64,000 bases of DNA from contig OZ241837.1 in the NCBI GenBank assembly GCA_965202615.1, positions 59,656 through 123,655 on the forward strand, in the 5' to 3' direction. The notes under the pieces were generated by a model. The model was given only the letters and a program-made list of their open reading frames with translations. It had not been told where the DNA came from and did no database searches. Below are positions 9,791-34,229 of the stretch, one piece after another (the stretch's first letter is position 1; each line of letters starts with the position of its first letter). Source of the DNA: Arenicellales bacterium (GTDB lineage: Bacteria; Pseudomonadota; Gammaproteobacteria; Arenicellales; JAJDZL01). A program made the position numbers and the translations under genes.

Positions 9791-9950
9791 TTGAAAATGA
9801 TGCTGGATGGATGACCCGGTTGCTGTCGCGCCGCGGCAACCGCCGGTCAATCATTGAAGGCAGCCTCAGGCGCTTGATCAACTCGGCGAGTGCCACCAAG
9901 CCGGCACGGGCAGTCAAAGTTGGGGAAGTGTCGAATTTTTTTATACAATA
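9790..9950 (-). pseudogene. IS1380-family transposase N-terminal fragment abutting the IS5 remnant
   Basis: TLTARAGLVALAELIKRLRLPSMIDRRLP..SNR resembles the IS1380 N-terminal LTxRAGL...LP-PGSNRGY pattern. Confidence 0.55.
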
Positions 9951-10162
9951 TACACCCGTAGAAACAGCGGTGAGTTTCCAGAACTGGAATCTCGGCCGCA
10001 TTTGTCAGGTTTATGCATGTGCCTGAAATCGGGAGTGTCGAAATCTCGCAAGGCAGGCCATAGGATGGTAAAAGAATGCTACAAGGATGTAGCGCGCGTG
10101 CGGGATTTGGTGCGGACGCTCCCGCATTCGGGCGTGTTGGTGGCCTTGATGTCTGCCATAAT

Positions 10163-13100: not shown

Positions 13101-14838
13101 CGACGCGACCCTGTCCGCCCTGACGGCGACAAGCAGCACGAGTGCCTCGGGCTCATTCACGACGCTGAACATCGGCGCATTCGCCGCGGGCACCACGTCC
13201 TACTCGGCCTCGGTGGGCAATTCCGTCACCCACGTGAAGCTGACCCCGACAGTGAACCACTCCAACGCCACGGTGAAAGTGGGCAGGCAAGGGACCACGC
13301 TGGCCACGGTCCCCAGCGGCACGGCGAGTTCGGCGATCGCGCTCAGCGTGGGGTCGAACACGCTCGTGGTACGGGTGACGGCCGAGGACACAACCACGAC
13401 CAGGAACTACACGGTCACCGTCGCGCGGCAGACGACGGCGACCGAAGCGGAATCGGCGGCGCTGAACCTGTCGCTGGACGGTCTCTCGCGCACGCTGCTG
13501 AGCCGCGCTGTCGGTGTCATCGGCGAGCGCATCGCGGCCTCGGATGAACCGGCGCCGGCAATGCCGGAGTCCGCCGACGCTGACGCCTGGATGTCGGCGA
13601 CCGGCTTGCGGTTAAGCCCGGCCGCCACCTCGCCGAAGACGGATTCGTGGCGGGACCCGCATGCGCAGAACCCGGACTGGATAACGGGCGACCTCAGCTG
13701 GAAGCGCTCTTTTGCGTTCTCGCTGGATGCGCCGAACGGCAGTCGGTCGCAGACGGACGATTCGCAATGGAGGGTGTGGGGCACCGGCGACCTGCAGAAG
13801 TTCAGGCGCAAGCAGACATCGACCACCAGCCAGGGTGGCTGGAACACCGTCTATCTGGGGCTTGAGCGGCGCGTTGCCGGACACTGGCTGGGCGGACTGG
13901 CGCTTGCCTCCGGTCGCGGCAAGGCCGATTACAGCTACAGTGAGGGGGCGGCTGAAGGTCGTCTCGAGTTGCGTCTCAAAGCGGCTTATCCGTATTTCAG
14001 AACCGTCACTGCAGAAGGTTTCGAGATCTGGGCGATGGCCGGTGCCGGCCAAGGCCGCGCGACCAACTCAATCAACGCTCAGGAGCCGCACCGCGGAAGA
14101 TTGCACATGCGCATGGCGGCGGCGGGATTGCGCGTGAAGATGGCGGATTGGCCCTCGGTGCAGCTGTCGGCGCTGGCCGATGCGAGTGCCGAGACACTCA
14201 TCATCCGCGGCGAGCAGTCGCTGGCGAACCTGAAGTCGTCAGTGCGGCGGGTGCGGGCCGGACTGGAGCTGTCCGGCCATCAGGGCCAGTGGTCACCCTA
14301 TATGCGGCTGAACGTACGCCATGAGGGCGGCGGCTTGTCGGCTGCCGGACTGGAGAGCGAGGCCGGCGCACGCTATTCACACGGACGCCTGGGCATGGAT
14401 GTGCGCATGCGGTGGATGAGACTCAAGGGCAGCGGGAAATATCGGGAATCGGGCGCCGCTGCAACGCTGCGGATCAGTCCGGCGGCGGACGGCACCGGCC
14501 TGAGCCTGACGCTGACACCAAGCCGGGGGCGCCCGGACGGGACCGACCTGGTGTGGGGCGCGAGTCCCCTGCCTTCGGAAACGCCTGCCGGAGCCGGCAA
14601 CGGGCTGGCGATGACGGTCCAGGTCGGCTACGGCATCCGGCCCTTGCAGCTGCCGGGGCTGGTAACGCCGACACTCGGGTATGCGCGCGGCGCACAGGGT
14701 GACGAACGGCTGCGGGTCGGCGCGGATTACGCGACCGAACTGCCGTATGATCTCAGGCTCGGATTCGGACTGGAACGGCGCAAAACTCTCGGCAATACCG
14801 ACCGGAACATCCGCCTGGATGCGCAAATGCGCTGGTGA
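10163..14838 (+). CDS. Large surface adhesin/autotransporter-like protein: signal peptide, FN3-like domain, 7 cadherin-like beta-sandwich repeats, C-terminal beta-barrel; start out of frame at a G9 tract
   Basis: Frame is open from 10162 (upstream of the ORF-track start at 10441) and encodes RFRRLSLLLPVLALLLGALGLFAPPPAHA|QAPENPTNF..WTR..SYRI. Repeats read STDATLSAL...VTAQDG-TTQTYTVTVTR. C-terminus ends in aromatic W (MRW). GC is much higher than the flanks. Confidence 0.8.
10179..10187 (+). repeat. G9 homopolymer, candidate slipped-strand phase-variation switch
   Basis: GTG 10163 (and ATG 10076) lie in a frame that stops at TAG 10199; one extra G joins them to the signal-peptide frame. Confidence 0.6.
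11362..13430 (+). repeat. Six tandem 342-351 bp coding repeats (cadherin-like domains); a seventh, more diverged copy at about 10636-10970
   Basis: Units begin CAGTCCA(C/A)CGA at 11362, 11704, 12046, 12394, 12745 and 13093. Confidence 0.95.
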
Positions 14839-18329: not shown

Positions 18330-20633
18330 ATGAGTCCACGCGAACGCCTGGAATCGATTGCCGCTAAAAATGGCGAGATAAAACAACCGATACTGACACC
18401 GCATCTTGAATTTCGTCCGATCGGTGACGGACAGGTGCTCCTGGTCTCCGAGACGTTCAATACCCTTTTGCACGGGCAGGTTTACCCGGATCTCCTGGCA
18501 CTGCTTGTCGGTGGGCGTTCGACAAATGAAATCGTCGAATCGCTATCGACAGCACATGCAAAGACGGAAATAAAAGCAGCATTGACCTCAATGGCCGCCA
18601 AGGGATACATCGTTTCCGGCGAATACGAGATGGATCAAGGCAACGCGGCATTTTGGTCTTCACTCGGTGTCCCTCCATGCCAGGTCGAGGAAAAATTGTG
18701 CTCTGCAGCGGTGGCAGTTCACGGTGATGACGATAACCGGCTCAAAGCGAGTCTGGAAACCAAGGGGATCAGTGTCAGTTCGAAACAGGCAGCCCTTTCG
18801 ATTTACTTCTCAAACAACTATCTCGACAGTCGGCATCATGCAGTCAATCGGCAACATATCGATTCAGGTACCCCTTGGCTATTGATTCAGCCGCAAGGCA
18901 TGCATCCATTGTTTGGCCCTGTCTTTGAACCGGCTGATGAAGGGCCTTGTTGGGCGTGCCTCGCGTACCGTATCGGCAATAACAACGAGGTCCATTCCTT
19001 TGTCCGAAATTTTTGCGGTGAAGCAGCTGCTTTCCGACCCATTGCGGCCGACCCCGCTGCGCTGGATGTAATCTACGGGATCATTTCAATCGAGATCGCC
19101 AAATGGCTGGTGCTGGGTGATGCAGCTGCGCTTGGTCACCAAGCATTCTCGCTTGATGTGGCAGATATGAAAAGCCGACACCACCCCGTCATGCGTCGGC
19201 CGCAGTGCGAAGTCTGCGGCGACGAGGCGCTTAGAAACAAAAATCGCCCGGCGCTTCCGATACGCTTGCAGGCGAGCCCGAATAATCTAAGCAACAGTGG
19301 CGGCTCTCGTGCAATTCCGCCCGCTCAAACGCACGAGCGATATCGGCATCTGATCAGCCCGGTCAGCGGAATTGTTTCCTGGGTCACGCGCACGAGCCCT
19401 GAAGCTGATCCGTGGTTGCATGTTCACTGGGCCGGCAGCAACCTGGCGCTCAGAATCAGGAGCCTCAGTTCGCTGCGGCGCAGTTTACGGAGCAAATCCG
19501 CAGGCAAAGGCAACACCGCGGAACAGTCCGAGGTCAGCGCGCTGTGCGAGGCAATCGAACGTTATTCCGGTGCTTTCCACGGCGACGAGATACGCAGCCG
19601 GAAACGATATTCCGAGTTTTCAATGGACGGGGACGGGCAGGCGATTCACCCAAACGATGTTCAGCTGTTCAGCGACTGGCAATTCGCGCATGCCGATCAA
19701 ATCAATGCTCGCGGCCACCCGTATAACCTCGTTCCACCGCGATTCGATCCGGACCGAGAAATCGAATGGTCCCCGATATGGTCATTCACAGAGAATAGAC
19801 ATCGCTATTTGCCGACCGCGATGCTTTATGGCATGACACCGGAGCAGCGCGGCAACGCGGGACTTTGGGCAGACTCCAACGGCTGTGCCGCGGGGAATAC
19901 ACTTGAAGAGGCGATATTACAGGGATTTTTCGAGCTGGTCGAACGCGATGCGTTCGCGCTTTGGTGGTACAACCGGATTTCTCGACCCGAAGTTCACCTG
20001 GAAAGCTTTGGCGACGAGTACCTGGCTTGTGCACAGGACTACTACCGCAAGTATGATCGAGACCTGTGGGTGTTGGACATTACCAGCGACCTCGGCATAC
20101 CGACATTCGTCGCGTTGTCCCATCGAACCGACGGTGATGCTCAAGACATCATTTACGGTGCAGGCGCACACACTGACCCGAAAATCGCTGTGTTGCGCGC
20201 CGTGTGTGAAATGAACCAGTGCCTGACGTGGGTGCCTCACCCTGGCAAAGAATCTTCAGGATATGGAGTCGACGATCCAATGTGCCTATGGTGGTGGAAG
20301 AATGGAAAACTCGAGGATCACCCTTTTCTCACCCCATCCCGTGTAATCGAGCCACTCAAATTTTCAGACTATGCGGTCCCAAGTACTGACGATTTGTACG
20401 ACGAAGTGAAACGGTGTCAGGAGTTGGTCGAAAACAAGGGCATGCATTTGTTGGTTCTTGACCAGACGCGCCCCGATATCGGAATGCCTGTCGTACGCGT
20501 GATCGTGCCTGGACTGCGGCATTTTTGGCCTCGATTCGCACCGGGACGCCTGTTTGATGTGCCGGTTGAAATGGGCTGGCGGCAAACCGCAATCGAGGAG
20601 CAAGACCTGAACCCCGTCCCCGTGATTGCCTAG
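18330..20633 (+). CDS. srpC: Fused RRE/E1-YcaO cyclodehydratase (TOMM C-D fusion), SrpC-like
   Basis: GPCWACL and RRPQCEVCG in the E1-like part; SALCEAIERYS, SNGCAAGNTLEEAILQGFFELVERDA, RAVCEMNQ; Pro-rich C-terminus LNPVPVIA typical of azoline-forming YcaOs. Confidence 0.92.
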   Translation: MSPRERLESIAAKNGEIKQPILTPHLEFRPIGDGQVLLVSETFNTLLHGQVYPDLLALLVGGRSTNEIVESLSTAHAKTEIKAALTSMAAKGYIVSGEYEMDQGNAAFWSSLGVPPCQVEEKLCSAAVAVHGDDDNRLKASLETKGISVSSKQAALSIYFSNNYLDSRHHAVNRQHIDSGTPWLLIQPQGMHPLFGPVFEPADEGPCWACLAYRIGNNNEVHSFVRNFCGEAAAFRPIAADPAALDVIYGIISIEIAKWLVLGDAAALGHQAFSLDVADMKSRHHPVMRRPQCEVCGDEALRNKNRPALPIRLQASPNNLSNSGGSRAIPPAQTHERYRHLISPVSGIVSWVTRTSPEADPWLHVHWAGSNLALRIRSLSSLRRSLRSKSAGKGNTAEQSEVSALCEAIERYSGAFHGDEIRSRKRYSEFSMDGDGQAIHPNDVQLFSDWQFAHADQINARGHPYNLVPPRFDPDREIEWSPIWSFTENRHRYLPTAMLYGMTPEQRGNAGLWADSNGCAAGNTLEEAILQGFFELVERDAFALWWYNRISRPEVHLESFGDEYLACAQDYYRKYDRDLWVLDITSDLGIPTFVALSHRTDGDAQDIIYGAGAHTDPKIAVLRAVCEMNQCLTWVPHPGKESSGYGVDDPMCLWWWKNGKLEDHPFLTPSRVIEPLKFSDYAVPSTDDLYDEVKRCQELVENKGMHLLVLDQTRPDIGMPVVRVIVPGLRHFWPRFAPGRLFDVPVEMGWRQTAIEEQDLNPVPVIA

Positions 20634-20780: not shown

Positions 20781-21590
20781 ATGCGCATTCGGATTGCCTC
20801 AATCAGCACCTTAGTTGTGGCGCTGATCTGCTTGTACTCTACCCATTCGACTCTCCTTGCTCAACAACAGACACCTGAAGAGAAGGGGCTGGCGATTGCG
20901 CGTGAAGCCAGCGCGCGCAATGACGGTTTTGGGGACTTCACCGCCCAGATGACGATGATTCTGCTTGACCGGCTAGGTCAGGAGACGGTCCGTCAGATGC
21001 GCTTCAAGGTGCTGGAGGTTCAAGGGGATGGTGACAAGAGTCTGTTTGTGTTCGATCAACCGAAAGACGTCAAGGGGACCGCCTTGCTGACCCATGTTCA
21101 CATCAACTCACCGGACGACCAGTGGCTGTATCTGCCGGCCCTCAAAAGAGTGAAGCGCATCAATGCCGCGAAGCGTTCGGGATCATTCATGGGCAGCGAA
21201 TTTTCCTACGAAGACATGAGTTCTCCAGAGGTGGATGAATTCACTTATAAGTATCTTCGCGACGAGTCATGTGGGGAGTTGACTTGCACCGTGACCGAGC
21301 AATTCCCCCTGGACAAGAAATCGGGCTACAGTCGCAAGGTCGTGTGGCAAGATTCGGTTGAGCTTCGTACCTGGAAAATGGAACTTTACGATCGAGGGGG
21401 ATCCCATCGAAAAACGCTCACGTTTGCAAACTATCAACAATATCTGGATCAGTACTGGCGAGCGGGAGAGCAGACGATGGTCAATCACCTGACCGGTGCG
21501 AGCACGGTACTCGAATGGACCGATTTCAAGTTCCGCACCAACCTTGACGAAAGAGAATTCACACAAACCGGACTGAAGCGAGTGCGCTGA
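20781..21590 (+). CDS. Outer-membrane lipoprotein-sorting (LolA-like) protein
   Basis: Signal peptide; F-QPKDVKGTALL, DDQWLYLPALKRVKRI, FMGSEFSYEDM. Confidence 0.88.
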   Translation: MRIRIASISTLVVALICLYSTHSTLLAQQQTPEEKGLAIAREASARNDGFGDFTAQMTMILLDRLGQETVRQMRFKVLEVQGDGDKSLFVFDQPKDVKGTALLTHVHINSPDDQWLYLPALKRVKRINAAKRSGSFMGSEFSYEDMSSPEVDEFTYKYLRDESCGELTCTVTEQFPLDKKSGYSRKVVWQDSVELRTWKMELYDRGGSHRKTLTFANYQQYLDQYWRAGEQTMVNHLTGASTVLEWTDFKFRTNLDEREFTQTGLKRVR

Positions 21591-21674: not shown

Positions 21675-22952
21675 ATGATAGCGCCGGGCAGCAAATCCCT
21701 GAAAAAGATCGCTGTGATCGGACGAGGAACAGCGGGGTCCTTGGCAGCTGCCAACGTATCTCGTTTACTCTCCAATAACGACTGCGAATTACACCATATC
21801 TACGACTCTCGCATCCCCATCATTGGTGTTGGCGAAGGGAGTTGGCCAAGTCTCGTTCAACATTTGCAGCACCTGACGAATCTACCTGACGATACGGTTC
21901 AACAGAACTTGAACGCAACCCGTAAATACGGTGTCGCGTTCGAAGGATGGGGCGAGAACAAACACGACTTCATCCACTATTTCATGCCCCGGGATAAGTC
22001 CTACGCCTACCATTTGTCTGCCGATCTCATGGGAGACCTCCTGCAAGAGTGCACGCACGCCCAACACATCGACGCGCAGGTGCTGAATATCACCCGAGTC
22101 GAAAACGGTGCGCAGGTGGAATTTGAAGGCCGGATTCCAGAGCGCTATGACCTGGTTTTTGATGCTCGCGGGTTCCCCAAAGAACTCGACTCGAAACAGC
22201 ATATCGACATCAATTTCATCCCCACCAACACGGCTGTCATCCGACGTTGTCCGGCAATTGTCAAGGCAGAGCAGAACGGGGGACCGGTTATTCAACACAC
22301 CTACACCCGTGCAGTGGCGCGTCCGCACGGATGGATATTTGTGATTCCACTGACGGTGCACACATCCTATGGGTACATCTTCAACGGCGATGTATCCACT
22401 CTTGCCGATGTCGAATCGGATTTTGACGCGTTTTTTGAAGCCGATGGCGTGGTGGAATTTGAGAAACGGGCCGTGATTCAATTCCCGAATTTCATTCATC
22501 GCCAGATATACGATGGAACGGTTGCCCGCATCGGCAACGCGGCGGCTTTCATGGAGCCACTCGAAGCAACCGCAATCGTATCCGCCCAGTTGCAGATCGG
22601 CATGGTGCTTCAAACCCGATATCACCGCCCGATAGAATATCTTGAGCGCGATGCGCCAATGGTCAATCGATTTCTGGTCAACAACATGGTCTGCTACGGC
22701 CTGTTCGTCGGCTGGCACTATTGCCGCGGCTCCATTTTCGAAAGCGAATTTTGGCGTCGTGCCCGTGACCACGTCTGGCCGCAACACCGTGAAGCCGCGA
22801 TCCCTGAGCTTGTCGATTGCGATGCACTTCGCAAGTTCGACGAGATGATCAAACTGATCGGCCAGCCGAACCTCGACTCGGCGGACTTGAACAGGATGTG
22901 CGGAGTTCCCGCTACCAGTTACACCCAAATGTCCCAAGGCCTCGGTTGTTGA
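21675..22952 (+). CDS. srpI: Flavin-dependent tryptophan-halogenase family enzyme (peptidyl brominase SrpI-like)
   Basis: GRGTAG, IGVGEGS, catalytic-Lys region ATRKYGVAFEGW, GWIFVIP (WxWxIP variant), FMEPLEAT; clustered with the LCCCW precursor. Confidence 0.85.
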   Translation: MIAPGSKSLKKIAVIGRGTAGSLAAANVSRLLSNNDCELHHIYDSRIPIIGVGEGSWPSLVQHLQHLTNLPDDTVQQNLNATRKYGVAFEGWGENKHDFIHYFMPRDKSYAYHLSADLMGDLLQECTHAQHIDAQVLNITRVENGAQVEFEGRIPERYDLVFDARGFPKELDSKQHIDINFIPTNTAVIRRCPAIVKAEQNGGPVIQHTYTRAVARPHGWIFVIPLTVHTSYGYIFNGDVSTLADVESDFDAFFEADGVVEFEKRAVIQFPNFIHRQIYDGTVARIGNAAAFMEPLEATAIVSAQLQIGMVLQTRYHRPIEYLERDAPMVNRFLVNNMVCYGLFVGWHYCRGSIFESEFWRRARDHVWPQHREAAIPELVDCDALRKFDEMIKLIGQPNLDSADLNRMCGVPATSYTQMSQGLGC

Positions 22953-22977: not shown

Positions 22978-25293
22978 ATGACAAATGAACAATTCGCAAA
23001 GCGATTTATCGAACGAGTGCTCGCTGCTCGGTGGTGGGTTATTCTAGCCACGCTGGCCTTGGTTGCAATAGCCGCCAGTGGTATTGTCAAGCTCGAATTC
23101 TCCGCCAACTATCGAATTTTTTTCGACGACGACAATCCGCAGCTGCTGGCGCTGGAAAAGCTGGAACAGACTTATGGCAAAAATGAAAACATCGTATTCC
23201 TGATTGTTCCGCACGACGGCGACGCCACCTCGCAAAACGCGCTGTCGGCCGCAACCTGGCTGACAGACGCCGCTTGGTTTGCGCCCTACGCGAGACGCGT
23301 TGACTCGCTCGCCAATTTTCAGCACACAACCGCCGAGGGTGACGATCTTTACGTGCGAGATCTCGTGGACCCGCAAGAACTGGACCGGCCCGAAGTGCGG
23401 TTGCTGGTTCGTGAAATCGGGTTGTCGGACCCGCGTATTGCTGGCAGTGTTCTGGGCAGGAACGGCGACGTGAGTGTTGTAAACGTCACAGTTGAACTGC
23501 CGCAGGAAGGTCTTTTGGACGCGGTCGCCGAGGTTTCCCAGTTTGCGAGATCACTGGCTGCAGAGGCGGAACAGCAGTTTTCCGGCATCGATCTTCGCAT
23601 CGTCGGTACGGTCATGATCAACCAAACCTTCGTGGAAGCTTCGATCAGCAGCCAGAAGATTTTTCTGCCGGTCAGTCTCGTGCTCATGGCCCTGATCCTT
23701 GGAATCCTTACCCGCAGCTGGGCCGGGGTTCTGTCAACAGGAATGGTCATCGTGTTTTCCATTCTTGCATCTATGGGTCTTGGCGCATGGGTTGGCTTGC
23801 CCTTCTCCCCGCCTATTTCACCGGCACCGACGATCGTGCTGATGATCGTCGTGGCCAACTGCGTACACCTGCTTGTGGCATTGCGACAGCGTCTGCAAGC
23901 GGGTGAACCCAAGCACGATGCCATCGTCGAGGCGATTAAGCTTAACCTGTACCCGATTTTCCTGGCAAGTCTGACGACAACGCTTGGATTTTTGAGCATG
24001 AACTTCTCCGAAGTGCCGCCTTATCGACATCTCGGCAACTTTGTCGCCTTCGGCATCGTCTCCTCTTTCATTCTCTCCGTCACATTTTTGCCGGCCCTGC
24101 TTTCACTTCTTCCCGCGGGTTCTGCCAAGAAACGCCAGCTGCGCGGGCCAAAAATGCGCCTGATTGCCGAGTTTTCCATGCACCACCGGAAGTTCCTGTT
24201 TTGGGGATGGCTGGTGTTTGTGATTGCAATGATTGCGGCCATTCCGCGCAACGAACTTAACGATGTTCTTGTGCATTTCTTCAACGAGAGCGTTGAGTTT
24301 CGACAGGACACCGATTTCATGGACGAGCACCTGAGCGGAAACACGCTGCTGGAGTATTCGCTGCGAGCATCAGCCGAAGGGGGAGTGACGGACCCGCTTT
24401 TTCTTGCCGAGGTTTCGAGCTTTGCCAAGTGGTATCGTCAGCAACCGCCTGTGCGCCATGTATCGGTTATTACCGATACCTTTCGGCAACTCAACATGAG
24501 CATGCATGGCGATGACCCGGATTTCTACCGACTGCCGGAAAGTCAGGAACTGACAGCGCAGTATCTGCTCCTTTATGAACTCTCGCTGCCCGAGGGTTTG
24601 AATTTGAACAACCAGATAGACAGGTCCCGTTCGGCCACGCGGGTGTCGGTCTCTGCCGAGACACTTGATTCGCAAGAACTGCTTGAACTGAATGCGCGGG
24701 CCGAAGCCTGGTTGAACGAAAACGCCACGCATGTCGCCAGCGTCAACAGCACCGGACCTGCAGCGCTGTTCGCCTACATTGGCCAACGCAACATTCGCGC
24801 GATGCTGATCGGAACGGTGGTCGTACTCATCGCCATTTCCACGATTCTCCTTTTCGCCTTGCGATCACTGCGAATCGGTTTGATCAGCATCATTCCCAAC
24901 TTGATTCCCGCAGCGGCAGGCTTTGGAATCTGGGGGCTGACGGTTGGACAGGTGGGACTGTCGCTATCTGTTGTCGTGGCCATGACCGTCGGCATTGTTG
25001 TGGATGATACGGTGCATTTTCTCAGCAAGTATCTCCGTGCGAGACGCGAATACGGCCGGAGTGTTGAACAAGCGGTGTTTTATGCCTTTGAAACTGCGGG
25101 GCAAGCCCTGTTCACGACGACGATCGTTTTAGTTGCGGGATTTCTGATTTTCGCATTTTCTCCATTCATCCCGACCGCGCAGGTCGGAGTGTTGACCGCA
25201 ATGATCATTGCCTTTGCGCTCGTCGCAGACCTGACACTCCTGCCTGCATTGCTAATTACGATAGACCGGGGTTCCAGGTCGCCTAAGCAATAA
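22978..25293 (+). CDS. MMPL/RND-family transporter
   Basis: Two repeats of periplasmic domain plus TM bundle; SLTTTLGFLS, GIVVDDTVHFL, ALVADLTLLPALL. Confidence 0.9.
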   Translation: MTNEQFAKRFIERVLAARWWVILATLALVAIAASGIVKLEFSANYRIFFDDDNPQLLALEKLEQTYGKNENIVFLIVPHDGDATSQNALSAATWLTDAAWFAPYARRVDSLANFQHTTAEGDDLYVRDLVDPQELDRPEVRLLVREIGLSDPRIAGSVLGRNGDVSVVNVTVELPQEGLLDAVAEVSQFARSLAAEAEQQFSGIDLRIVGTVMINQTFVEASISSQKIFLPVSLVLMALILGILTRSWAGVLSTGMVIVFSILASMGLGAWVGLPFSPPISPAPTIVLMIVVANCVHLLVALRQRLQAGEPKHDAIVEAIKLNLYPIFLASLTTTLGFLSMNFSEVPPYRHLGNFVAFGIVSSFILSVTFLPALLSLLPAGSAKKRQLRGPKMRLIAEFSMHHRKFLFWGWLVFVIAMIAAIPRNELNDVLVHFFNESVEFRQDTDFMDEHLSGNTLLEYSLRASAEGGVTDPLFLAEVSSFAKWYRQQPPVRHVSVITDTFRQLNMSMHGDDPDFYRLPESQELTAQYLLLYELSLPEGLNLNNQIDRSRSATRVSVSAETLDSQELLELNARAEAWLNENATHVASVNSTGPAALFAYIGQRNIRAMLIGTVVVLIAISTILLFALRSLRIGLISIIPNLIPAAAGFGIWGLTVGQVGLSLSVVVAMTVGIVVDDTVHFLSKYLRARREYGRSVEQAVFYAFETAGQALFTTTIVLVAGFLIFAFSPFIPTAQVGVLTAMIIAFALVADLTLLPALLITIDRGSRSPKQ

Positions 25294-25581: not shown

Positions 25582-26133
25582 GTGTTCAACAACCCGTTAA
25601 ATTCTTTCCATGACACAGTTGCCGAAGCCAAGGACGAGCGTGAGCAACTTGACCGATTACTGACTATCTCCACACCGCGGGAACGTCTGCTTATCGTTGT
25701 TATCGCGATTTTTCTTGCCCTCTTCACAGCATGGCTCTTGCTCGGGAATGCCGCCCGCAGCCTGGCGGTTGACGGTGTCGTGGTCGGGCCCGGTGACAAC
25801 CTGTCAGAGAACCGCCCGGCTGTGCAGGTGCTTATCGCAAGCAAGACAGAGGATGTATCGCATTTCAAGGTCGGAACGTCGGCACAAATAGAACTGAGCC
25901 TGTCCGACGGCAAAGTTAAAACACTGGTTGGAGAGGTCATTTCCATAACCGCTGCACACTTGTCTGAGGATTTGGCCGCGTTTGACTCCTCGGTACCGTT
26001 GTCTTTGCACCGGATAAACATGTCAATTGATGAAATCCTTGATTTTGCTTCAATTTCTGGCCTGAAGTGCCGGATTGTCTTTCAACTTGAAGAACAATCT
26101 CCAATCTCTGTGCTGCTGAATCGGCAAAATTAA
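25582..26133 (+). CDS. Short NHLP-system secretion accessory (HlyD/MFP-like) protein
   Basis: EQLDRLLTISTPRERL plus TM helix and C-terminal SPISVLL are typical of NHLP secretion proteins; the central coiled coil is absent. Confidence 0.65.
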   Translation: MFNNPLNSFHDTVAEAKDEREQLDRLLTISTPRERLLIVVIAIFLALFTAWLLLGNAARSLAVDGVVVGPGDNLSENRPAVQVLIASKTEDVSHFKVGTSAQIELSLSDGKVKTLVGEVISITAAHLSEDLAAFDSSVPLSLHRINMSIDEILDFASISGLKCRIVFQLEEQSPISVLLNRQN

Positions 26134-26174: not shown

Positions 26175-28343
26175 TTGAACAACTTGAAACGAAAAATCAC
26201 GACGCCAATACTGTTGCAGATGCATGCATCCGAATGCGGTGCTGCCTGCCTGGGAATTGTTTTGGCGTACTTCGGCCGCTGGGTGACGCTGACCGAATTG
26301 CGAGAAAAGTGTGAAGTCAGCCGAGATGGCAGCAGTGCGGCGAGCATCGTGCGCGCCGCCAGACACTATGGTCTGAACTGCTCCGGACTGAGCGTGAGAG
26401 CTGAGTGGCTGAAAAAGCTGGAGTTGCCGCTTATTGTGTTCTGGCAATTCAGTCATTTCGTGGTGCTCGAAGGGTTCGATGGAAATCATTTTTTTATCAA
26501 TGACCCGGCCACGGGGCGGCGCAGCCTTTCCGCCGAAGAGTTTCTGACGAGCTACAGCGGCATTGCCCTTCGATTCGAGCGCACCGACGATTTCACCCCC
26601 GGCGGTAAGCCATCGAGTTTGTTCAAACAACTGCAAAAGTTGCTTGCGGGAACAACGGGTGCGCTGACTTGGGTCATTGCCTGTGGAGTTATGTTGACAT
26701 TGCTGGCGCTTGTCATCCCCGCAACGCTCAGTGTTTTCGTGGACGATGTGCTGGAAAACCATGGACCTTGGGGTGGCTTGGTGACCGCCCTGCTTGGCGG
26801 TGGGGTGCTTGCATACATCCTGTCTTTGCTCAAGCACCGATTTCTGAAACGTCTTCAAATTCGAATTTCAGTGATCGGCTACACCCGCAATTTATCGCGG
26901 CTGCTGCGGTTGCCGGTTGATTTTTTTCAGCACAGACTGGTCGGTGACCTGACTGACCGGGTATCTTCAATAGACAGAATTTCGAAGAACCTGACGGAAC
27001 AGTTTCTGGTGCTGATGATCGACATGGCAATGAGTGTGGTGTTGCTGGTCGTCATGTTCACATACGATGTCCTGCTCACGGCGGTTGTGCTGCTGCTGGC
27101 CGTCATACACGGGTTGCTGGCTCATTTTCTCAACGCGCCTCGCACGGTACGAAGTCAGACGATGAGACGCGAGCAGGGATTGCTGATTGGACTTGGCATG
27201 CAGATGCTGAGTCATATAGACAATCTGCGCATGACGGGGGCGGATGACCGATTCTATTCTCGCTGGTGCGGTCAGCAGGCCCGTGAACTGCATGCCCGTC
27301 AGCTTTTTTCGGAACTCGGTTCCGTCTATTCCGCACTGCCGGGTACGATAGAAATTTTTCGCAGTGCCGCAGTCTGCGGCATCGGCGGGAGCCTGGTCCT
27401 GGCAGGGCACATGACCCTGGGGACATTGGTTGCATTCTATATCCTGGCAGAGTTGTTTCTGACACCAGTCGGACGTTTTGTGGAGCTGGCCACCAAACGT
27501 CGGGCGCTTGAAACCGATTTGCAAAGACTGGACGACATTTCCAAATCCACACAAGATCCCGTCTACAGCCGTCGAAGCGAGCAGCTTGAGTCAATCCAAA
27601 CACTCGATGGCCGTCTCCAGCTGACCGGTCAGCTCGAACTGAAAAACGTGACATTCGGGTTCAACAAGAGCCGGCAGCCGTTGATCAAGGACTTTAATCT
27701 CGCGATTAAACCGGGGCAGCGAGTGGCCTTGATTGGTCCCAGCGGGTCCGGCAAGTCAACCTTGGCGCGTCTTATCTCGGGAGCGTATCAGCCTTGGTCA
27801 GGCGAAATCCTTTTCGATGGCTATCCAAGGGATGAGGTTCCAGAGGAAGTCATGCGACAGTCCATATCCATGGTGGATCAGGAAATTGCGTTATTTGCAG
27901 CGTCTTTGCGCGACAACATTACCTTGTGGAACTCCGCCATTCCGGATGAAGCCATTTTCGCGGCGACACGCGATGCCCAGATTCATGACGAAATCCTGCT
28001 GAGAGCGCAGGGATACTCGACACTCGTAGAGGAAGGCGGGTTGAATTTCAGTGGCGGTCAGCGACAGCGGCTGGAAATTGCCCGCGCATTGGTGGGAAAC
28101 CCGACAATGCTGATTCTCGATGAGGCCACCAGCGCCCTTGATGCCGCTACCGAGGAGCATGTCGACGATGCCTTGCGACGCCGCGGGATCACCTGCCTGA
28201 TCGTAGCACACCGTCTGAGCACCGTACGAGACTGCGATGAAATCATCGTTCTTGAGAAAGGTGTCACCGTGCAACGAGGCACGCACGACGAATTGATTGG
28301 CGATCGCGACGGCGTCTACTGCAAGTTGGTCAAGTCAAGCTGA
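26175..28343 (+). CDS. NHLP export ABC transporter with C39 peptidase (PCAT)
   Basis: LQMHASECGAACL (catalytic Cys), HFVVLEG..NDP, Walker [26 protein letters not shown]. Confidence 0.93.
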   Translation: MNNLKRKITTPILLQMHASECGAACLGIVLAYFGRWVTLTELREKCEVSRDGSSAASIVRAARHYGLNCSGLSVRAEWLKKLELPLIVFWQFSHFVVLEGFDGNHFFINDPATGRRSLSAEEFLTSYSGIALRFERTDDFTPGGKPSSLFKQLQKLLAGTTGALTWVIACGVMLTLLALVIPATLSVFVDDVLENHGPWGGLVTALLGGGVLAYILSLLKHRFLKRLQIRISVIGYTRNLSRLLRLPVDFFQHRLVGDLTDRVSSIDRISKNLTEQFLVLMIDMAMSVVLLVVMFTYDVLLTAVVLLLAVIHGLLAHFLNAPRTVRSQTMRREQGLLIGLGMQMLSHIDNLRMTGADDRFYSRWCGQQARELHARQLFSELGSVYSALPGTIEIFRSAAVCGIGGSLVLAGHMTLGTLVAFYILAELFLTPVGRFVELATKRRALETDLQRLDDISKSTQDPVYSRRSEQLESIQTLDGRLQLTGQLELKNVTFGFNKSRQPLIKDFNLAIKPGQRVALIGPSGSGKSTLARLISGAYQPWSGEILFDGYPRDEVPEEVMRQSISMVDQEIALFAASLRDNITLWNSAIPDEAIFAATRDAQIHDEILLRAQGYSTLVEEGGLNFSGGQRQRLEIARALVGNPTMLILDEATSALDAATEEHVDDALRRRGITCLIVAHRLSTVRDCDEIIVLEKGVTVQRGTHDELIGDRDGVYCKLVKSS

Positions 28344-31285
28344 TGCAGGGTTCAAATCCTAAACCGACCTCAATCGCGCAAGTTGCAGCTCGCACCGGCG
28401 AATCGGTGCTCTGTGCCGGAAACCTGCCGATCAGTCTTGATGATCCGGACAGTGTCTGGTTCATTGACCAGGGCCGCGTCAATATTTTCCTGATCGAACT
28501 CAAAGACGGAACGGAACAGGCGGCGCCGCAACACCTGATGACCCGAGAGTCCGGCTGGCTGCTGCCGGGTGTCGCACCGGACAGGCAAACCAAAGACGGC
28601 GGCACTACACTCCACCTGGTGGCTAAGGGACAAAGAGGCACACTGTTGAAACGGATGCCGGCAGCCGCATTATCGGAGGTCGATTCTGCAGAACTGGGGG
28701 AACAAATCGATACCTGGCTGACCGAATTTACCGACACTCTTTCGCGTCTGACCAAGCCGCTTCCGCGTCCGACTGAACTGGCTGAACCCGGTGAGATGCA
28801 GGTGTCTGCCCCCTGCACGCTGTCTGTACGGCGCGGCGTAGTCTGGACTTCCGTACCGCCTCCGAGTACGGTCCTGTTCATGGACCTCGTCAGCCAGGCG
28901 GACATTTCCCAAGCCAGTGGACCAGAAGAAGCCATGCTGCCGCTAACACGGACAAGTTGGATCAAACTGTTCGAGTGCGCAACGCTGACCGGCCAATCAT
29001 CTGAAACACTGGCGCAACAGAACATGCTGATGCCAGCACTTGCTGCCTTTCACACGGTCGCATTGAAGTTGGAACGCTTGAATCGCCGGCTTGCGGTGGC
29101 TGATGATGTGAACCTGGAACGTGCGCGGACGGCCAGTCGCCGAACCGCAGAGAAGGCCGCGCGGCAACGGCTGTACAACATTTATGACCTGCCGATTGAT
29201 CAAGATTTCAAGGTTGAAGATACGACTTTGGCGGACGCCCTGCAAGTGATTGGTCGACATGAAAAAATAGACTTCAAATTCCCGACTCGATCAGAAGATG
29301 CCAATGATCTGATGGGGCTTTTTGACGTGCTGACTGCCTCAGGGGTCCGCGCTCGACGCGTTAGATTCAAAGCCGAGGGCAAGTGGTGGTGGAGCGACAG
29401 CAACGCATTGCTGGCATTTCGCGCGGAAAACAATCAGCCCGTCGCATTGCTGCCAGGAAGATTCGGGCGTTACCGGGCATTCGATCCTGTAAGCCAACGC
29501 ACGGTTCGGGTTACGGCCGAACGCGCCGCCACGCTGAAGGATGAAGCGTGGATGTTCTATCGCCCGTTGCCGGCAGGCCACATGGAACCATCAGAACTGT
29601 TGAAATTCGCACTGCACGGTTCGGCCGCAGATATTCTACGGTTGATATGTGTTGGACTCCCTTACGGCCTGATCAGGCTGTTGCCGGCACTCGCACTCGG
29701 AGTTGTTGCAAACCAGTTAACCGCGGGAGGAGGCTCTGAAACGCTCTACATGCTGGCTATGGTGCTGGCCGGTTTCGGCCTCCTTGGCGGACTGCTGCAT
29801 ATGCTGCAAAGCATGACAATGGCACGCCTTGAAGGACGTGCAGCTTCCCGCATCGAAGCGGCTTTCTGGGATTATCTCATGCGCCTTCCATCAAGCGTGC
29901 TAAACCGCTATCCGGCCGGTGACCTGGCCATGTCCGGCATGTCCTTCCAAAATATCCGTGATGGCTTGCAAGGTGTGGTCGCCGACAGTTTCCTATCGAT
30001 AATATTTTTGCTTCCGGTGTTTGGCGTCATCTTTTTCTACGACGCCACCCTTGGAAGCGTTGCTCTCGCATTCAGTCTGGTTTCGCTGCTTGTCACGGTT
30101 GTCATTGGACTGCGTCAAATTTCACCTTATGCGAGAATGGCCGGTGCAAGTCGCCGCGTCGCGGGTCGTTTGTTCCAGATCATCGGCGGCATCACCAAGT
30201 TGCGTGTGGAAAACGCGGAAGGCTCCGCTTTCGCGAACTGGGCCAAAGATTACCGCGAGCAGAAACACGCCGAAATCGAACTCGGCGCGCTCGACGTGCA
30301 TTCCCGGGCATTCAGTGCCGCACTTCCGTTTCTGGCTGGTGCAGTATTGCTCTTCGCGGTGATGGCGGGAGGCAATCGAAATGTACCGGTTGGTGATTTT
30401 CTCGTCGTTTACACGGTCTTCATCATTTTTCAATCGTCCATCGCCCGGCTCGGTGAGTCTTTCGGCATCATTGCTTCCATGCTGCCGGTGTTCGATCAAA
30501 TGCGACCGCTGCTGACAGCAGCTCGCGAAACTCAATCCGAAGGAGAACCCGTTGATTATCTGGGCGGTGATGTTCTATTCGATCGCATTTCATTCCGTTA
30601 CGAATCCGACGGTCCGATGGTTCTGGATGATGTGACCATTCATGCCCGTCGTGGCGAGTTCATTGCAATTGCAGGCGAGTCCGGTGCCGGCAAAAGCACC
30701 TTGTTCCGACTCGCGCTGGGAATAGACCGGCCGGCAGCCGGCGCAGTCTTTTACGACGGACGGGATCTGCGGCACCTCAATTTGAAACAGGTGCGCCAGA
30801 AAATTGGTGCGGTACCGCAGTCGGTTGGTCTCCATCCCCAGGATCTTTGGGACAATATCGTCAGTCACCACGAGGACGTGACGAATAACGACGTATGGTA
30901 TGCGACCCGAATTGCCGAAGTTGAAAAAGAGATCAAAAGCATGCCAATGGGCATGATGACCATGGTCGGCACCAGCGGTTCGGTTCTGTCCGGCGGCGAA
31001 AGGCAGCGGGTCACGATTGCCCGTTCAGTGCTCGGCAATCCGCAAATCATGCTGTTTGACGAAGCGACCAACTGGCTGGATAACGAAAACCAGGCCCAGG
31101 TTATGAAAAATCTCACCACATTGACCTCCACTCGAATCGTCATTGCCCACCGGCTGTCAACGCTGGAACAGGCTGATCGAATTTACGTGATGCAGGCCGG
31201 AAGCGTGGTTCAATGCGGCCCCTTCAAAGAACTCATGGCGGTCGAAGGCGTATTCAAAGAACTCGTCAAAAGGCAGATCGCCTGA
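28343..31285 (+). CDS. NHLP export ABC transporter permease/ATPase (second subunit)
   Basis: N-terminal LDDPDSVWFI cNMP-like region, GESGAGKST, LSGGERQR, FDEATNWLD; TGATG overlap with the upstream gene. Confidence 0.9.
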   Translation: MQGSNPKPTSIAQVAARTGESVLCAGNLPISLDDPDSVWFIDQGRVNIFLIELKDGTEQAAPQHLMTRESGWLLPGVAPDRQTKDGGTTLHLVAKGQRGTLLKRMPAAALSEVDSAELGEQIDTWLTEFTDTLSRLTKPLPRPTELAEPGEMQVSAPCTLSVRRGVVWTSVPPPSTVLFMDLVSQADISQASGPEEAMLPLTRTSWIKLFECATLTGQSSETLAQQNMLMPALAAFHTVALKLERLNRRLAVADDVNLERARTASRRTAEKAARQRLYNIYDLPIDQDFKVEDTTLADALQVIGRHEKIDFKFPTRSEDANDLMGLFDVLTASGVRARRVRFKAEGKWWWSDSNALLAFRAENNQPVALLPGRFGRYRAFDPVSQRTVRVTAERAATLKDEAWMFYRPLPAGHMEPSELLKFALHGSAADILRLICVGLPYGLIRLLPALALGVVANQLTAGGGSETLYMLAMVLAGFGLLGGLLHMLQSMTMARLEGRAASRIEAAFWDYLMRLPSSVLNRYPAGDLAMSGMSFQNIRDGLQGVVADSFLSIIFLLPVFGVIFFYDATLGSVALAFSLVSLLVTVVIGLRQISPYARMAGASRRVAGRLFQIIGGITKLRVENAEGSAFANWAKDYREQKHAEIELGALDVHSRAFSAALPFLAGAVLLFAVMAGGNRNVPVGDFLVVYTVFIIFQSSIARLGESFGIIASMLPVFDQMRPLLTAARETQSEGEPVDYLGGDVLFDRISFRYESDGPMVLDDVTIHARRGEFIAIAGESGAGKSTLFRLALGIDRPAAGAVFYDGRDLRHLNLKQVRQKIGAVPQSVGLHPQDLWDNIVSHHEDVTNNDVWYATRIAEVEKEIKSMPMGMMTMVGTSGSVLSGGERQRVTIARSVLGNPQIMLFDEATNWLDNENQAQVMKNLTTLTSTRIVIAHRLSTLEQADRIYVMQAGSVVQCGPFKELMAVEGVFKELVKRQIA

Positions 31286-31324: not shown

Positions 31325-32620
31325 ATGAAAAAAACGGTTGACAGCGTGGAGACTCTGATATCAAGGGCTAGTAAAGATGACAATTTTCGCGAACGGCTTC
31401 TAGCGAATCCAAAAGAAACGATCGAGGCAGAACTCGCAATCAAGCTGGACGACGATCACAAAGTCTTCGTACACGAAGAAACCGACGCAGCAATACATGT
31501 GGTGCTTCCGCCGCGCAGCAAATACAGTGAGTCTGAACGGCAGGAGGCCAAAACCGGGGCCTCGTCGCTTGAATTTCTTCGAAAAACACTCTACGACCCG
31601 GCACCGCCCCTGCGTCCCCCCGCACCGGAACAGGTTGGAGCGCCGGCGAACATTCCGAGCCCCGCGGCACTCGTCAAGGCAGCCACAGAATGCGTCCGCC
31701 GCGGTCTTGTTTTCCTGGAATCCGCCATTGACGAGAACGGGGCCTGGCACTGCATTCGTTTCAACACCGCTGATGCGAACATTCCGCGGCATTTTGAAAA
31801 GCCTCCTTTCATTTCAGCTTTTTGCGCATTGGCCCTGGAAAGCAGCAAACAAGCGCAAGCTAAAGCCCTGTGCGCCGCCACCAAGGCTTATCTTGCAAGC
31901 ACCATTGAATATCCCGGATTGTGGCGCTACTACCGCCATTTGCCCCAGGACCTTGACAGTACAACACTCTGTTCACTAGTCATCAAGACCCACCCTTGGA
32001 TACTGCTGCGAAGAAACGTTGCGCCGATCTTGGCGAACCGAAACGAGGAAGGCTGTTTCTCGACCTGGATTTTGGACGAAGACGAACCTGATGTGGTGTC
32101 AACATTTCGTATCGAAGCTGATCCTGTCGTTAATGCGAACGTCATCGCCTACCTCGGCGACCGACCGGAAACCAGGGATGCACAGCAATGGCTGAAAAGG
32201 TTGCTCGAAAAAGGCAGCCTCGAAAACACATCCAAATGGTACCCCGATACAGTCGCAATCTGCCATGCAATCAGCCGTGCCGTCAAACTCGCGCGACCCG
32301 CTCTCGATGAACTCCCCCCGATACTCGTTGATCACATCCAAGGCATGTACAGCGAAAAAGCACAGTTTGGCAACATTCTGCAGACTGCGCAGGCCGTATC
32401 GGCGCTCTACAACATCGGGAGTCTTGAAACCATCGACACCAAACGCCAAGTGGAAAGACTCATCGGTTCGCAACGAGACGATGGAAGCTGGCCTGAGCTT
32501 CTCGCGTTTGGCGACCAATCGATGAAATGGGGTACGTTCGGAAATATCGGACATGGCTCCGAATCGGTGACGACTGCATTTTGCATTGAAGCTTTGGAAC
32601 GACTTGTTGAGACACTGTAA
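31325..32620 (+). CDS. NHLP-leader-like domain fused to a class II terpene cyclase/prenyltransferase-squalene oxidase-like domain
   Basis: Residues 1-78 align without gaps to the precursor leader. The remainder has GLWRYY..LPQDLDST (DxDD-like), DPVVNANV, QW-like SQRDDGSW and GSESVTTAFCIEAL. Confidence 0.7.
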   Translation: MKKTVDSVETLISRASKDDNFRERLLANPKETIEAELAIKLDDDHKVFVHEETDAAIHVVLPPRSKYSESERQEAKTGASSLEFLRKTLYDPAPPLRPPAPEQVGAPANIPSPAALVKAATECVRRGLVFLESAIDENGAWHCIRFNTADANIPRHFEKPPFISAFCALALESSKQAQAKALCAATKAYLASTIEYPGLWRYYRHLPQDLDSTTLCSLVIKTHPWILLRRNVAPILANRNEEGCFSTWILDEDEPDVVSTFRIEADPVVNANVIAYLGDRPETRDAQQWLKRLLEKGSLENTSKWYPDTVAICHAISRAVKLARPALDELPPILVDHIQGMYSEKAQFGNILQTAQAVSALYNIGSLETIDTKRQVERLIGSQRDDGSWPELLAFGDQSMKWGTFGNIGHGSESVTTAFCIEALERLVETL

Positions 32621-32632
32621 TCGGGATATTGC

Positions 32633-33751
32633 ATGCATATCGACGAAGCAATTACACTGACGCAGGAATGTCTCGCAGAAGAAGGCCGCTCCATGGGTGA
32701 ATTGCTCAGGTTTTTTCGAGACAGGGTTTCGCCGGTCCTTATCGGAGATTCGCAGTGGGAGCACGTACTTGAATGTGCCGGGGAACTTCCGATTACGATG
32801 GCTGCCTTCCCATTTGGCTTCGAGTTGCCGTTACATACACCCAACCCGACTGCAGATTTCGGTGCCTCGCTGGCGAGCGGGACCAGAAGCGCAGAATTTT
32901 TCCGGGAGCGAGCGTTGGGTAACGAGGCGGATGAAGTCGCAAGCGTGATCACGCGGCTATTCAAACAAATGGATGTCGAAGACTCGCCCCTGCGTGAAAT
33001 TGTCGGTCGCAAACTAATGCTGGAATTCGACATCGGCTCGAAGAAACAAGCTGGAATTACGTTTCCTGGGATGTTCCTGCGACCTAACGAACGCCCGATT
33101 GTCGGGGTTCAGGATCAGGCCAGCGATGTCGGCACGGTGGTTAACGCACTGGCTTCTTCCCTTGGTTGGGAGATTAGTGTTCCCCAACTCAATCACGTCA
33201 AGCGAGTTTATCTGGCGCAACCGGAAAAGACGCGCCTGGATTCGTTTGGGGTCTTCCCGTCCCGATCGCGTGCAATCCGTCTGGCAATCATGGGTTTCAA
33301 ATCTCAGCGGGACGTGTGCGGTTTTCTTCAAAAGACGGGTTGGCCAGGACAGACGTCGGCTGTCGATTCGCTGATTGCCCGTTTCAAGGAACGCGTGAAC
33401 ATCGCCCGGGTCGGGTTAAATGTTGATGTACGGGACAATGGTCTCAGCCCGACACTTGGCCTCACGCTGATTGTCAAGCAACGGTATACAAAAGATTCCC
33501 GCTATTGGCTCGATGGCCTGACCGATTGGGACCCGTTTTTGGAGGTGCTGGGCCATGAAGAGATAGTCGTTCAGGAAAAACTTTCGGAGCTTGCGCATTG
33601 GGTTGCGAAACCAACAATACTGTATGCCAAGTCCGGGCGTTTCATACTGCTGCGCGGCATTCACCACATCAAGCTGGTCATTTCGGAAAACGAGCTCCAA
33701 AATGCCAAAGCCTATGTGTTCATGGTGCTTTCCGCAGCGGTCGTCAATTGA
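32633..33751 (+). CDS. Putative ABBA-fold RiPP prenyltransferase
   Basis: GFELPL..ADF, LMLEFD, SRSRAIRL, GWPG, NVDV..LSPTLGL, HIKLV..AKAY resemble NHLP-cluster prenyltransferase domains as recalled; adjacent to the cyclase-like gene. Confidence 0.55.
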   Translation: MHIDEAITLTQECLAEEGRSMGELLRFFRDRVSPVLIGDSQWEHVLECAGELPITMAAFPFGFELPLHTPNPTADFGASLASGTRSAEFFRERALGNEADEVASVITRLFKQMDVEDSPLREIVGRKLMLEFDIGSKKQAGITFPGMFLRPNERPIVGVQDQASDVGTVVNALASSLGWEISVPQLNHVKRVYLAQPEKTRLDSFGVFPSRSRAIRLAIMGFKSQRDVCGFLQKTGWPGQTSAVDSLIARFKERVNIARVGLNVDVRDNGLSPTLGLTLIVKQRYTKDSRYWLDGLTDWDPFLEVLGHEEIVVQEKLSELAHWVAKPTILYAKSGRFILLRGIHHIKLVISENELQNAKAYVFMVLSAAVVN

Positions 33752-33977: not shown

Positions 33978-34229
33978 TCACCAGCAGCAACAAAGTCCGG
34001 CCGAAACAGCTTCGAGTTGTTCTTCAGTAATATTAGGGTCCGGTGGCAAGGCAATATGCACGGTTTGCATATCGCTCTCATGGACCACTATATTCATTGA
34101 TTCGGGCATGGTGATGCCCAACTCTCCACAAATTGTAGATTTCGGGTCTTCAATAAGACTTCGCTTGAACTCTGAATCCAGAGCCGATTTCTCGACAATT
34201 TGTCTGAGCATGTCATCTCCGCTTCTCAT
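33978..34229 (-). CDS. srpE: NHLP/proteusin precursor peptide, leader 78 aa, core LCCCW (SrpE-like)
   Basis: DSEFKRSLIEDPK..VHE..HIALPP leader, ITEEQLEAVSAG double-glycine-type site, core LCCCW; GAGGGAG RBS. Confidence 0.95.
   Translation of the reverse strand: MRSGDDMLRQIVEKSALDSEFKRSLIEDPKSTICGELGITMPESMNIVVHESDMQTVHIALPPDPNITEEQLEAVSAGLCCCW

Follow-up and report, generated by a model that had tools for sequence, protein, structure and literature searches.

Clusters of the srp type encode a proteusin precursor in which an NHLP leader precedes an LCCCW core, together with a YcaO enzyme and a brominase, and were described from sponge microbiomes (PMC10286304; 10.1101/2023.06.09.544420; PMC10858898). 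In the same accounts, formation of thiazolines by the YcaO enzyme and bromination of Trp by the halogenase were shown on the precursor SrpE. A survey of sponge proteusin clusters reports 'several genes of unknown function' (PMC11832590). Statements on published systems, here and below, refer to the passages of the cited sources that were covered. The stretch of DNA analyzed in this study (hereinafter referred to as the window) comprises 64,000 nucleotides of contig OZ241837.1 from an Arenicellales bacterium (assembly GCA_965202615.1, positions 59,656 to 123,655). The window contains a gene for a 431-aa protein (P0001; 31325..32620) in which an NHLP-like domain is fused to a class II terpene-cyclase-like domain; coordinates are window positions on the forward strand unless stated otherwise. 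An SrpE-type precursor (P0002, 83 aa; 33978..34229, reverse strand) consists of a 78-aa NHLP leader with an Ala-Gly cleavage site and the core LCCCW. Because an NHLP precursor with an LCCCW core, a YcaO enzyme and a brominase define the published srp clusters, the window locus is, by its gene content, an srp (LCCCW proteusin) cluster. It shares with the published system (SrpE, SrpC, SrpI) the LCCCW core on an NHLP leader, the YcaO enzyme, the Trp halogenase, NHLP-type exporters and an occurrence in many phyla. The published accounts (PMC10286304, PMC10858898, 10.1101/2023.06.09.544420), in contrast, describe only thiazolines and bromination in the passages covered, where neither a prenyltransferase or terpene cyclase nor an enzyme with a leader-like domain is mentioned, and the founding paper may annotate the genes considered here.

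Parts of the locus also resemble systems outside the srp family. In NctPC, an ABBA prenyltransferase and an MstE-like cyclase are fused, and the protein geranylgeranylates and cyclises on Trp (PMC13290415). Like the window locus, NctPC and ChrPC combine an ABBA-fold prenyltransferase with a monodomain cyclase of the MstE type, in peptide clusters whose core contains Trp; compared by description only, the window locus differs in its separate genes, the NHLP-like domain on the cyclase and the thiazoline-forming, brominated pentapeptide core. MstE (6SBB-6SBG) and the cyclase domain of the drimenol synthase AsDMS (9MHS, 9M7F) have the barrel predicted here (Z 28-30), a DxD-type motif, an aligned catalytic Asp and no gamma domain, whereas their identity to the fusion protein is 15-21%, their substrates are small molecules, they have no leader-like domain, and the motif of the fusion ends in Ser. 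Proteusin NHLP leaders (TIGR03793; MprE7, 8TB1; DprE2) possess the same nucleus of three helices and two strands, followed by Pro-Pro and by Gly at the same register; unlike them, the fusion protein lacks the L(X)4L motif and a short core, and is permanently joined to a 320-aa enzyme domain. A precursor-leader domain inside a modifying enzyme has also been predicted for the Type V split borosin methyltransferase RceM (10.1101/2021.12.24.474128). RceM differs in its borosin binding domain and unrelated chemistry, and its precursor lacks the domain, whereas here both proteins have one. The srp cluster type and prenyltransferase-cyclase chemistry are already known kinds.

The original prediction had described a gapless match between the N-terminal part of the fusion protein and the precursor leader, which was confirmed: 21 of 78 positions were identical between residues 1-78 of the two proteins (BLASTP, E 6e-13). 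Shuffling the leader 100,000 times gave a mean of 5.1 and a maximum of 15 identities, and no shuffled sequence reached 21. The NHLP leader model TIGR03793 matched residues 9-66 (E 2.9e-11), with a score of 43.1 bits that was below the cut-off of 50.9. A profile of the fusion N-domain matched the MprE7 leader structure 8TB1 (E 1.1e-6), and the fusion profile also matched two repeats in nitrile hydratase alpha (residues 56-107 and 127-175). The structured NHLP nucleus (residues 8-63; 31346..31513) was predicted to consist of three helices and a beta-hairpin. In the AlphaFold2 model of the N-domain, helices were assigned to residues 2-17, 19-27 and 29-37 and strands to residues 49-51 and 59-61, with predicted local distance difference test (pLDDT) values of 78-89 for residues 11-50 and 56-64 for residues 51-90; the fold assignment combines profile matches with this predicted secondary structure. 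Thirteen positions, mostly in the nucleus, were identical between fusion and precursor and at least 90% conserved in both. His50, Glu51 and His58 of the hairpin were near-invariant in both proteins, and the fusion nucleus also has invariant or near-invariant residues of its own (Arg22, Arg24, Glu34, His45). Within the window genome, the N-domain profile matched only the fusion gene, the precursor and one open frame of 214 residues that contains two repeats and resembles nitrile hydratase alpha.

The C-terminal domain (residues 113-431; 31661..32617) was predicted to have a monodomain (beta-only) class II terpene cyclase fold. A sequence search matched drimenol synthase (E 7e-5) and placed Asp211 opposite Asp323, the general acid of that enzyme, and Tyr306 opposite the cation-stabilising Tyr417 (PMC12232559). 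Both Asp211 and Tyr306 were invariant in 212 of 212 pooled fusion homologues, a redundant set with an effective number of 99 at 90% identity. Asp211 belongs to the acid motif Asp209-Leu-Asp211-Ser212 (31949..31960), and MstE likewise has a DxD motif (10.1101/2024.10.28.620730). The model of residues 112-431 aligned with AsDMS at Z 30.1 (root-mean-square deviation 2.4 over 284 residues) and with MstE at Z 27.9 (3.2 over 306), compared with Z 18.9 or less for non-cyclase barrels; the Foldseek E values were 4e-11 for AsDMS and 1e-9 for MstE. A single beta-domain helical barrel was seen in the model, the gamma domain being absent. As judged from these models, the C-domain is likely to be a working class II cyclase. 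We rejected an assignment of this domain to the beta subunits of protein prenyltransferases, since the profile match had an E value of 0.23 and no such entry was found among the best 50 fold matches.

A survey of the spread of the NHLP-cyclase fusion, suggested together with the original prediction, was carried out and revealed more than 1000 relatives in many phyla. The protein search yielded 1082 matches at E 0.001 among 8000 scored candidates, and all of the 120 matches listed were 429-447 aa in length with 98-100% query coverage. A genome scan found 80 loci, including those of Gammaproteobacteria, Alphaproteobacteria, Gemmatimonadota, Nitrospirota, Nitrospinota, Acidobacteria, Chloroflexota, Latescibacterota and others. 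The N-domain was present in 79 of them, the exception beginning at a contig end, and was in frame in all 13 metagenome loci that were found via cyclase-only patterns. A precursor was located at 68 of the 80 loci, ending in LCCCW in 67 cases and in LSCCW in one. Full 10-kb flanks were available for 58 loci; all of these had a prenyltransferase-like gene, 56 had the precursor, 54 had YcaO and 47 had the halogenase. The fusion is a conserved core gene of srp clusters in many sponge-associated bacteria.

The 17 fused domains grouped together (support 97/98) when 58 NHLP domains were placed in a tree, which was built from 74 columns and left many of its forks unresolved. The enzyme had been described as carrying its own copy of the precursor's leader, but the fused domains were equally distant from 14 SrpE-type leaders (mean identity 33.7%) and from 22 leaders of other clusters (34.0%). 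The description as a tailoring enzyme with a real NHLP-like domain was thus borne out as regards the conserved domain and its cyclase-type C-domain, but not as regards descent from the local precursor. Identity of the fusion to the precursor of its own locus (25.8/78) was no higher than to those of other loci (26.0/78; 68 loci, p 0.96). An origin by recent duplication of the local precursor or by gene conversion from it was also considered and rejected, with a DNA identity of 97/234 and no same-locus excess. In a quick tree of 64 cyclase domains, midpoint-rooted for drawing only, the 14 fused ones formed one group among leaderless relatives (Shimodaira-Hasegawa-like approximate likelihood ratio test 100), and among the best 150 representatives the N-domain was carried only by srp-type proteins and their fragments. 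The simplest reading of these sequences would be one old fusion event. The NHLP domain is an srp-specific addition to a cyclase family that does without it elsewhere. Two irregular copies were observed: a second, frameshifted fusion gene near the chromosome start of one genome (G411:C1:2296-3507), beside an intact copy elsewhere, and an 811-aa protein on one contig (P0124), which starts as the N-terminal half of YcaO, passes over into the fusion protein at about residue 18 and is probably a one-off deletion or assembly join.

The gene that starts 12 bases downstream of the fusion gene (P0123, 372 aa; 32633..33751) was predicted to encode a protein with an ABBA aromatic prenyltransferase fold and is the likely partner of the cyclase. 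P0123 had no match in Pfam or NCBIfam and no sequence match in the PDB, and a language-model search placed it in a Trp-DMAT-type cluster at 0.90, the recognition value being low. The model of P0123 had a pLDDT of 90.6, and all Foldseek matches listed for it were ABBA aromatic prenyltransferases (best E 3.6e-6, TM 0.39-0.54). Residues Glu64, Arg216, Lys347 and Tyr361 were kept in 10 of 10 aligned relatives. In P0241 and P0261, a P0123 relative is fused in front of a cyclase relative (hhalign 95.8% and 94.0%), as it is, weakly, in P0269; other cyclase relatives are joined to UbiA-type or DMATS-like domains. These fused forms came from the representative search, and a search for longer P0123 relatives, a weak test, found none at E 0.001. 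Given the predicted ABBA fold and the fusion of relatives elsewhere, P0123 and the cyclase look like a split NctPC. The window genome contained no second cyclase or prenyltransferase of these families, and its two polyprenyl synthase genes both lie outside the cluster. An extra N-terminal helix of P0123 was considered as a dedicated partner of the N-domain and rejected, because the extension was also matched in prenyltransferases of clusters that lack the fusion. The prenyltransferase-like gene occurred in two tandem copies at L001, L066 and L076 and in G407, G412, G441 and G446, which could mean two prenylation sites.

The reading that we favor, although we place it slightly below an even chance, is that an NHLP domain devoid of L(X)4L is fused to a monodomain cyclase that would cyclise a prenyl group added by P0123 to the srp peptide, with the leader-like domain acting as an uncleaved docking handle. 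Alternatively, the product of the cyclase and prenyltransferase might be a small-molecule meroterpenoid that has nothing to do with the peptide, or the N-domain might be a functionless remnant. The closest solved folds do act on small molecules, and domains of the P450, sulfotransferase or glycosyltransferase type are attached to many cyclase relatives. The steady company of an LCCCW or LSCCW precursor and the purifying selection on the N-domain (see below) speak against this pair of explanations, however, which we regard as highly improbable.

The tail of the leader-like domain has been remodelled. Position -7 was Arg in 211 of the 212 homologues and Lys in the remaining one, and the L(X)4L motif (-12 to -7) is therefore lost; position -12 was Phe, Leu or Tyr in 202 of 212. 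The residues at position -2 included Thr (145 of the 212 sequences), Ala (53) and Gly (4), and Gly78 (-1) was invariant, forming Ala-Gly or Gly-Gly in 57 of them. The altered C39 site noted earlier was read correctly in the window protein (Arg72 at -7, Thr77 at -2, Gly78 at -1); across the family, Arg at -7 is general, but Thr at -2 is not. Similarly, a Pro-rich linker had been said to follow Gly78, whereas residues 79-97 proved to be conserved: Ser81, Leu85, Pro92-Ala93-Pro94 and Arg97 occurred in all 212 homologues. The part that varies as a linker comprises only approximately residues 98-112 (31616..31660). Gly78 is followed by 353 residues, the first 19 of them strongly conserved, and thus by no short hypervariable core. 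Within the remodelled tail and pseudo-core (residues 64-97; 31514..31615), helices were predicted for residues 69-76 and 82-88.

The ratio of nonsynonymous to synonymous substitution rates (dN/dS), obtained from 35 disjoint sequence pairs, was 0.33 (0.28-0.37) for residues 8-63, 0.27 for residues 64-78 and 0.18 for residues 79-96 (0.22 for residues 64-96 together), compared with 0.74 (0.58-0.93) for residues 97-112 and 0.20 for residues 113-431. The low values of the N-domain relative to the linker indicate that it has been kept by selection. The predicted template modelling score (pTM) of the monomer was 0.83, as against 0.68-0.74 calculated for a model with residues 1-111 unplaced. Because residues 64-97 are as constrained as the enzyme and the pTM exceeds this expectation, they probably pack on the enzyme's own barrel, as far as the model indicates. 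Covariation analysis (mutual information with average product correction) of the 212 pooled fusions, at an effective number of 39-99, was dominated by columns of the variable linker and gave no usable contacts.

These observations also suit a purely intramolecular role, in which the leader-like domain and residues 64-97 would close the single-domain active site as a lid or be a built-in activator of their own enzyme, and bind no other protein. Residues 79-96 are constrained like the catalytic domain, the pTM implies a placement of the N-terminal part on the barrel, water has to be kept out of monodomain cyclases by a cap (10.1101/2024.10.28.620730), and the fusion clade has cyclase loops of its own, including an insertion near residues 257-263. 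Such a role leaves the retention of the whole NHLP nucleus (Arg22, Arg24, Glu34, His45) unexplained, however, and leaderless relatives of approximately 310 aa are common. We consider it unlikely, although it deserves serious attention.

In the original prediction, the domain was a leader mimic that docks on the RiPP recognition element (RRE; RiPP, a peptide that is ribosomally synthesized and then post-translationally modified) of YcaO or on the C39 exporter, with the halogenase among the proteins suggested for binding tests. For SrpI, the brominase, and for LahT, a C39 protease, use of L(X)4L has been reported (PMC10858898), and the YcaO enzyme MprC uses L(X)4L and also reads one face of helix alpha1 (PMC12455567). 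Since all three partners are reported to use the motif that the fusion has lost, docking on them is argued against. In addition, the MprE7 alpha1 positions 7, 10, 11, 14 and 17 map to fusion residues 6, 9, 10, 13 and 16 in the 8TB1 alignment, and these were variable or unlike SrpE. Docking of this kind would agree with the retained fold and length register up to Gly78, with the position -12 that is still hydrophobic in most homologues, with a gene order in which, at 69 of 80 loci, the fusion immediately follows the second ABC exporter, and with a genus distribution that matches the halogenase; on balance, we judge it very unlikely.

A processed giant precursor, from which the C39 exporter would cut after Gly78 and thereby export or activate the enzyme, had been put forward as well. 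The invariant Gly78 and the 57 sequences with Ala-Gly or Gly-Gly leave cleavage formally possible, but the loss of L(X)4L argues against it, and the N-domain is probably left uncleaved. Specifically, the Leu at -7 that is bound by C39 is replaced by Arg, Thr occupies -2 in most sequences, and the residues after Gly78 are conserved, predicted helical and unlike a core. This explanation seems to us extremely improbable.

A pairing of leaders was also weighed, in which the fused NHLP domain would pair with the leader nucleus of SrpE, recruit the substrate and recreate the two-repeat arrangement of nitrile hydratase alpha. The match of the fusion profile to both of those repeats and the near-invariant hairpin residues shared by fusion and precursor are in line with pairing, and so is the report that the SrpE nucleus is dispensable for the brominase and was proposed to serve other enzymes (PMC10858898). 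On the other hand, the shared residues may be structural, no NHLP dimers are mentioned in the literature passages covered, and there was no fusion-precursor covariation at the own locus (p 0.96), although this test is weak because the precursors are so uniform. We take pairing to be rather improbable.

Leader recognition through the nucleus has been reported for other enzymes. The ABBA prenyltransferase MppC inserts the aromatic side chain of Phe340 into the leader nucleus (PMC12715784), and the lanthionine synthetase DprM inserts Trp203/Trp207 (PMC12537861). As both grip the leader nucleus, P0123, which the original prediction did not name, would be the likeliest partner in trans of the fused domain. 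In the proposed mechanism, YcaO would form thiazolines and the halogenase would brominate Trp, as published for srp, and the ABBA-fold P0123 is predicted to take a prenyl group from a diphosphate of housekeeping metabolism and to place it at or near the terminal Trp. By analogy with MstE- and NctPC-type enzymes, Asp211 would then protonate the distal double bond and initiate ring formation, probably ending on the indole. Residues 64-97, formerly a recognition tail, may clamp the NHLP domain onto its own barrel. In the weakest step, which is also drawn by analogy, the displayed NHLP nucleus would be gripped by P0123, replacing the covalent prenyltransferase-cyclase link of the relatives. Prenyl transfer and cyclisation would take place with the leader still on, followed by cleavage and export by the C39 transporter.

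The genus of the window genome was represented by 31 genomes, of which 29 were searched for the fusion. The full fusion and the halogenase were found in the same 9 genomes, and the P0123 family in 17. The remaining 8 carried sister clusters without Trp, with YcaO, one or two P0123-type genes and cores such as LCCC, RCCC and LCCCGG; the fusion and halogenase were not found by these queries in those 8 genomes, one of which is only 63% complete. The occurrence of the P0123 family in such clusters indicates that Trp is not needed, and the acceptor may be the terminus or another group. In two of these 8 genomes (G403 and G420), 4 leaderless cyclases of 308-328 aa were present, 3 of them beside a more distant prenyltransferase, and 21 of the 22 non-srp NHLP precursors collected from these two genomes had Trp within the last four residues. 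The cyclase distribution tracks Trp-ending cores, though in effect within one lineage.

Further features of these genomes were recorded. Sister clusters without Trp (cores LCCC, RCCC, LCCCGV, LCCCGG and others) were located in G401, G402, G403, G414, G415, G420, G421, G442 and G445 (L121-L123, L174-L185). They contain YcaO, often with the desaturase-like fusion, and some have a methyltransferase, an amine oxidase or an MpaB-like oxygenase. G403 showed more than 30 scattered NHLP-domain matches (L120, L124, L125, L127-L143); the cores of the precursors fetched from it were diverse and acidic, and nearly all had Trp at or close to their end. Three leaderless cyclases and a distant prenyltransferase family were also present. 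G403 may possibly hold a combinatorial library of prenylated, cyclised peptides.

Several points weigh against the docking handle and the prenylation and cyclisation of the srp peptide. No prenylated srp product is described in the srp texts consulted, and the cyclase and prenyltransferase activities are both predictions from models. In the fusion, the acid is followed by Ser, at a position that is Asp in the motif most common among 155 relatives, and the model confidence for residues 51-90 is low. A P0123-type gene is directly downstream of the fusion in only 21 of 80 loci. MppC requires L(X)4L besides the nucleus (PMC12715784), which the fusion lacks, and a leader mimic and the true substrate would be competitors for one site. 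The co-occurrence of the fusion with Trp and halogenase represents essentially one lineage, with no independent events, and the closest relatives of P0123 beyond its srp orthologues are found in clusters with Trp-less cores. Finally, leaderless cyclase/prenyltransferase pairs in other NHLP clusters imply that a handle is not generally required.

Upstream of the fusion gene, the window contains a YcaO cyclodehydratase with a leader-binding domain (SrpC-like; PF02624, E 1e-98; 18330..20633), a LolA-like lipoprotein-sorting protein (20781..21590), a flavin-dependent tryptophan halogenase, SrpI-like by context (PF04820, E 2e-41; 21675..22952), an MMPL/RND-type transporter (22978..25293) and a short HlyD-like secretion protein (25582..26133). 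These are followed by the C39 peptidase ABC exporter (TIGR03796, above the cut-off; 26175..28343) and the second NHLP-type ABC exporter (TIGR03797-like; 28343..31285), the one located directly upstream of the fusion in most loci. A fatty-acid-desaturase-like membrane domain fused to a GlnE-like region (15815..18220) was found in 61 of 80 loci and is also kept in the Trp-less sister clusters. In two srp loci, a second NHLP precursor with 48% identity was observed beside a second MMPL gene (L051:18420-18665, L056:18603-18848). The window further contains a high-GC gene for a repeat-rich 1465-aa protein at 10441-14838, with cadherin-like repeats and an autotransporter-like C-terminus as judged by eye, and transposase remnants lie beside it at approximately 9146-10001.

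Full-text literature searches returned no title or abstract on an NHLP-cyclase fusion or on srp prenylation, although the founding srp, NctPC or MstE papers or preprint supplements may note the gene. In the parts covered, the NHLP-defining paper (PMC2887384) mentions no NHLP fused to an enzyme, and the fusion was not found in PMC9426513, PMC12426817 (reference list), 10.64898/2026.08.03.742642 or the supplements of PMC10858898. New here are the retention of the prenyltransferase without the fusion in Trp-less sister clusters and the leaderless cyclases that serve other NHLP clusters. It is conceivable, if doubtful, that the fusion represents a RiPP maturase of natural origin in which a leader domain, devoid of its signals for cleavage and for the RRE, is retained as a permanent handle coupling the cyclase to a leader-binding prenyltransferase, and that the true product of srp, the most widespread RiPP cluster of sponge symbionts, is a brominated peptide rich in thiazolines to which a polycyclic terpene is joined.

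The srp clusters are reported to be widespread and highly transcribed in sponge microbiomes (10.1101/2023.06.09.544420). The conserved cyclase and prenyltransferase predict that their peptides bear a further lipid modification beyond the two already accounted for, which would appear as a defined mass shift in extracts of sponges or upon co-expression. The fused domain also bears on the role of the folded half of NHLP leaders. If it does act as a docking handle, it would represent a natural way of wiring RiPP enzymes together and a possible tool for engineering.

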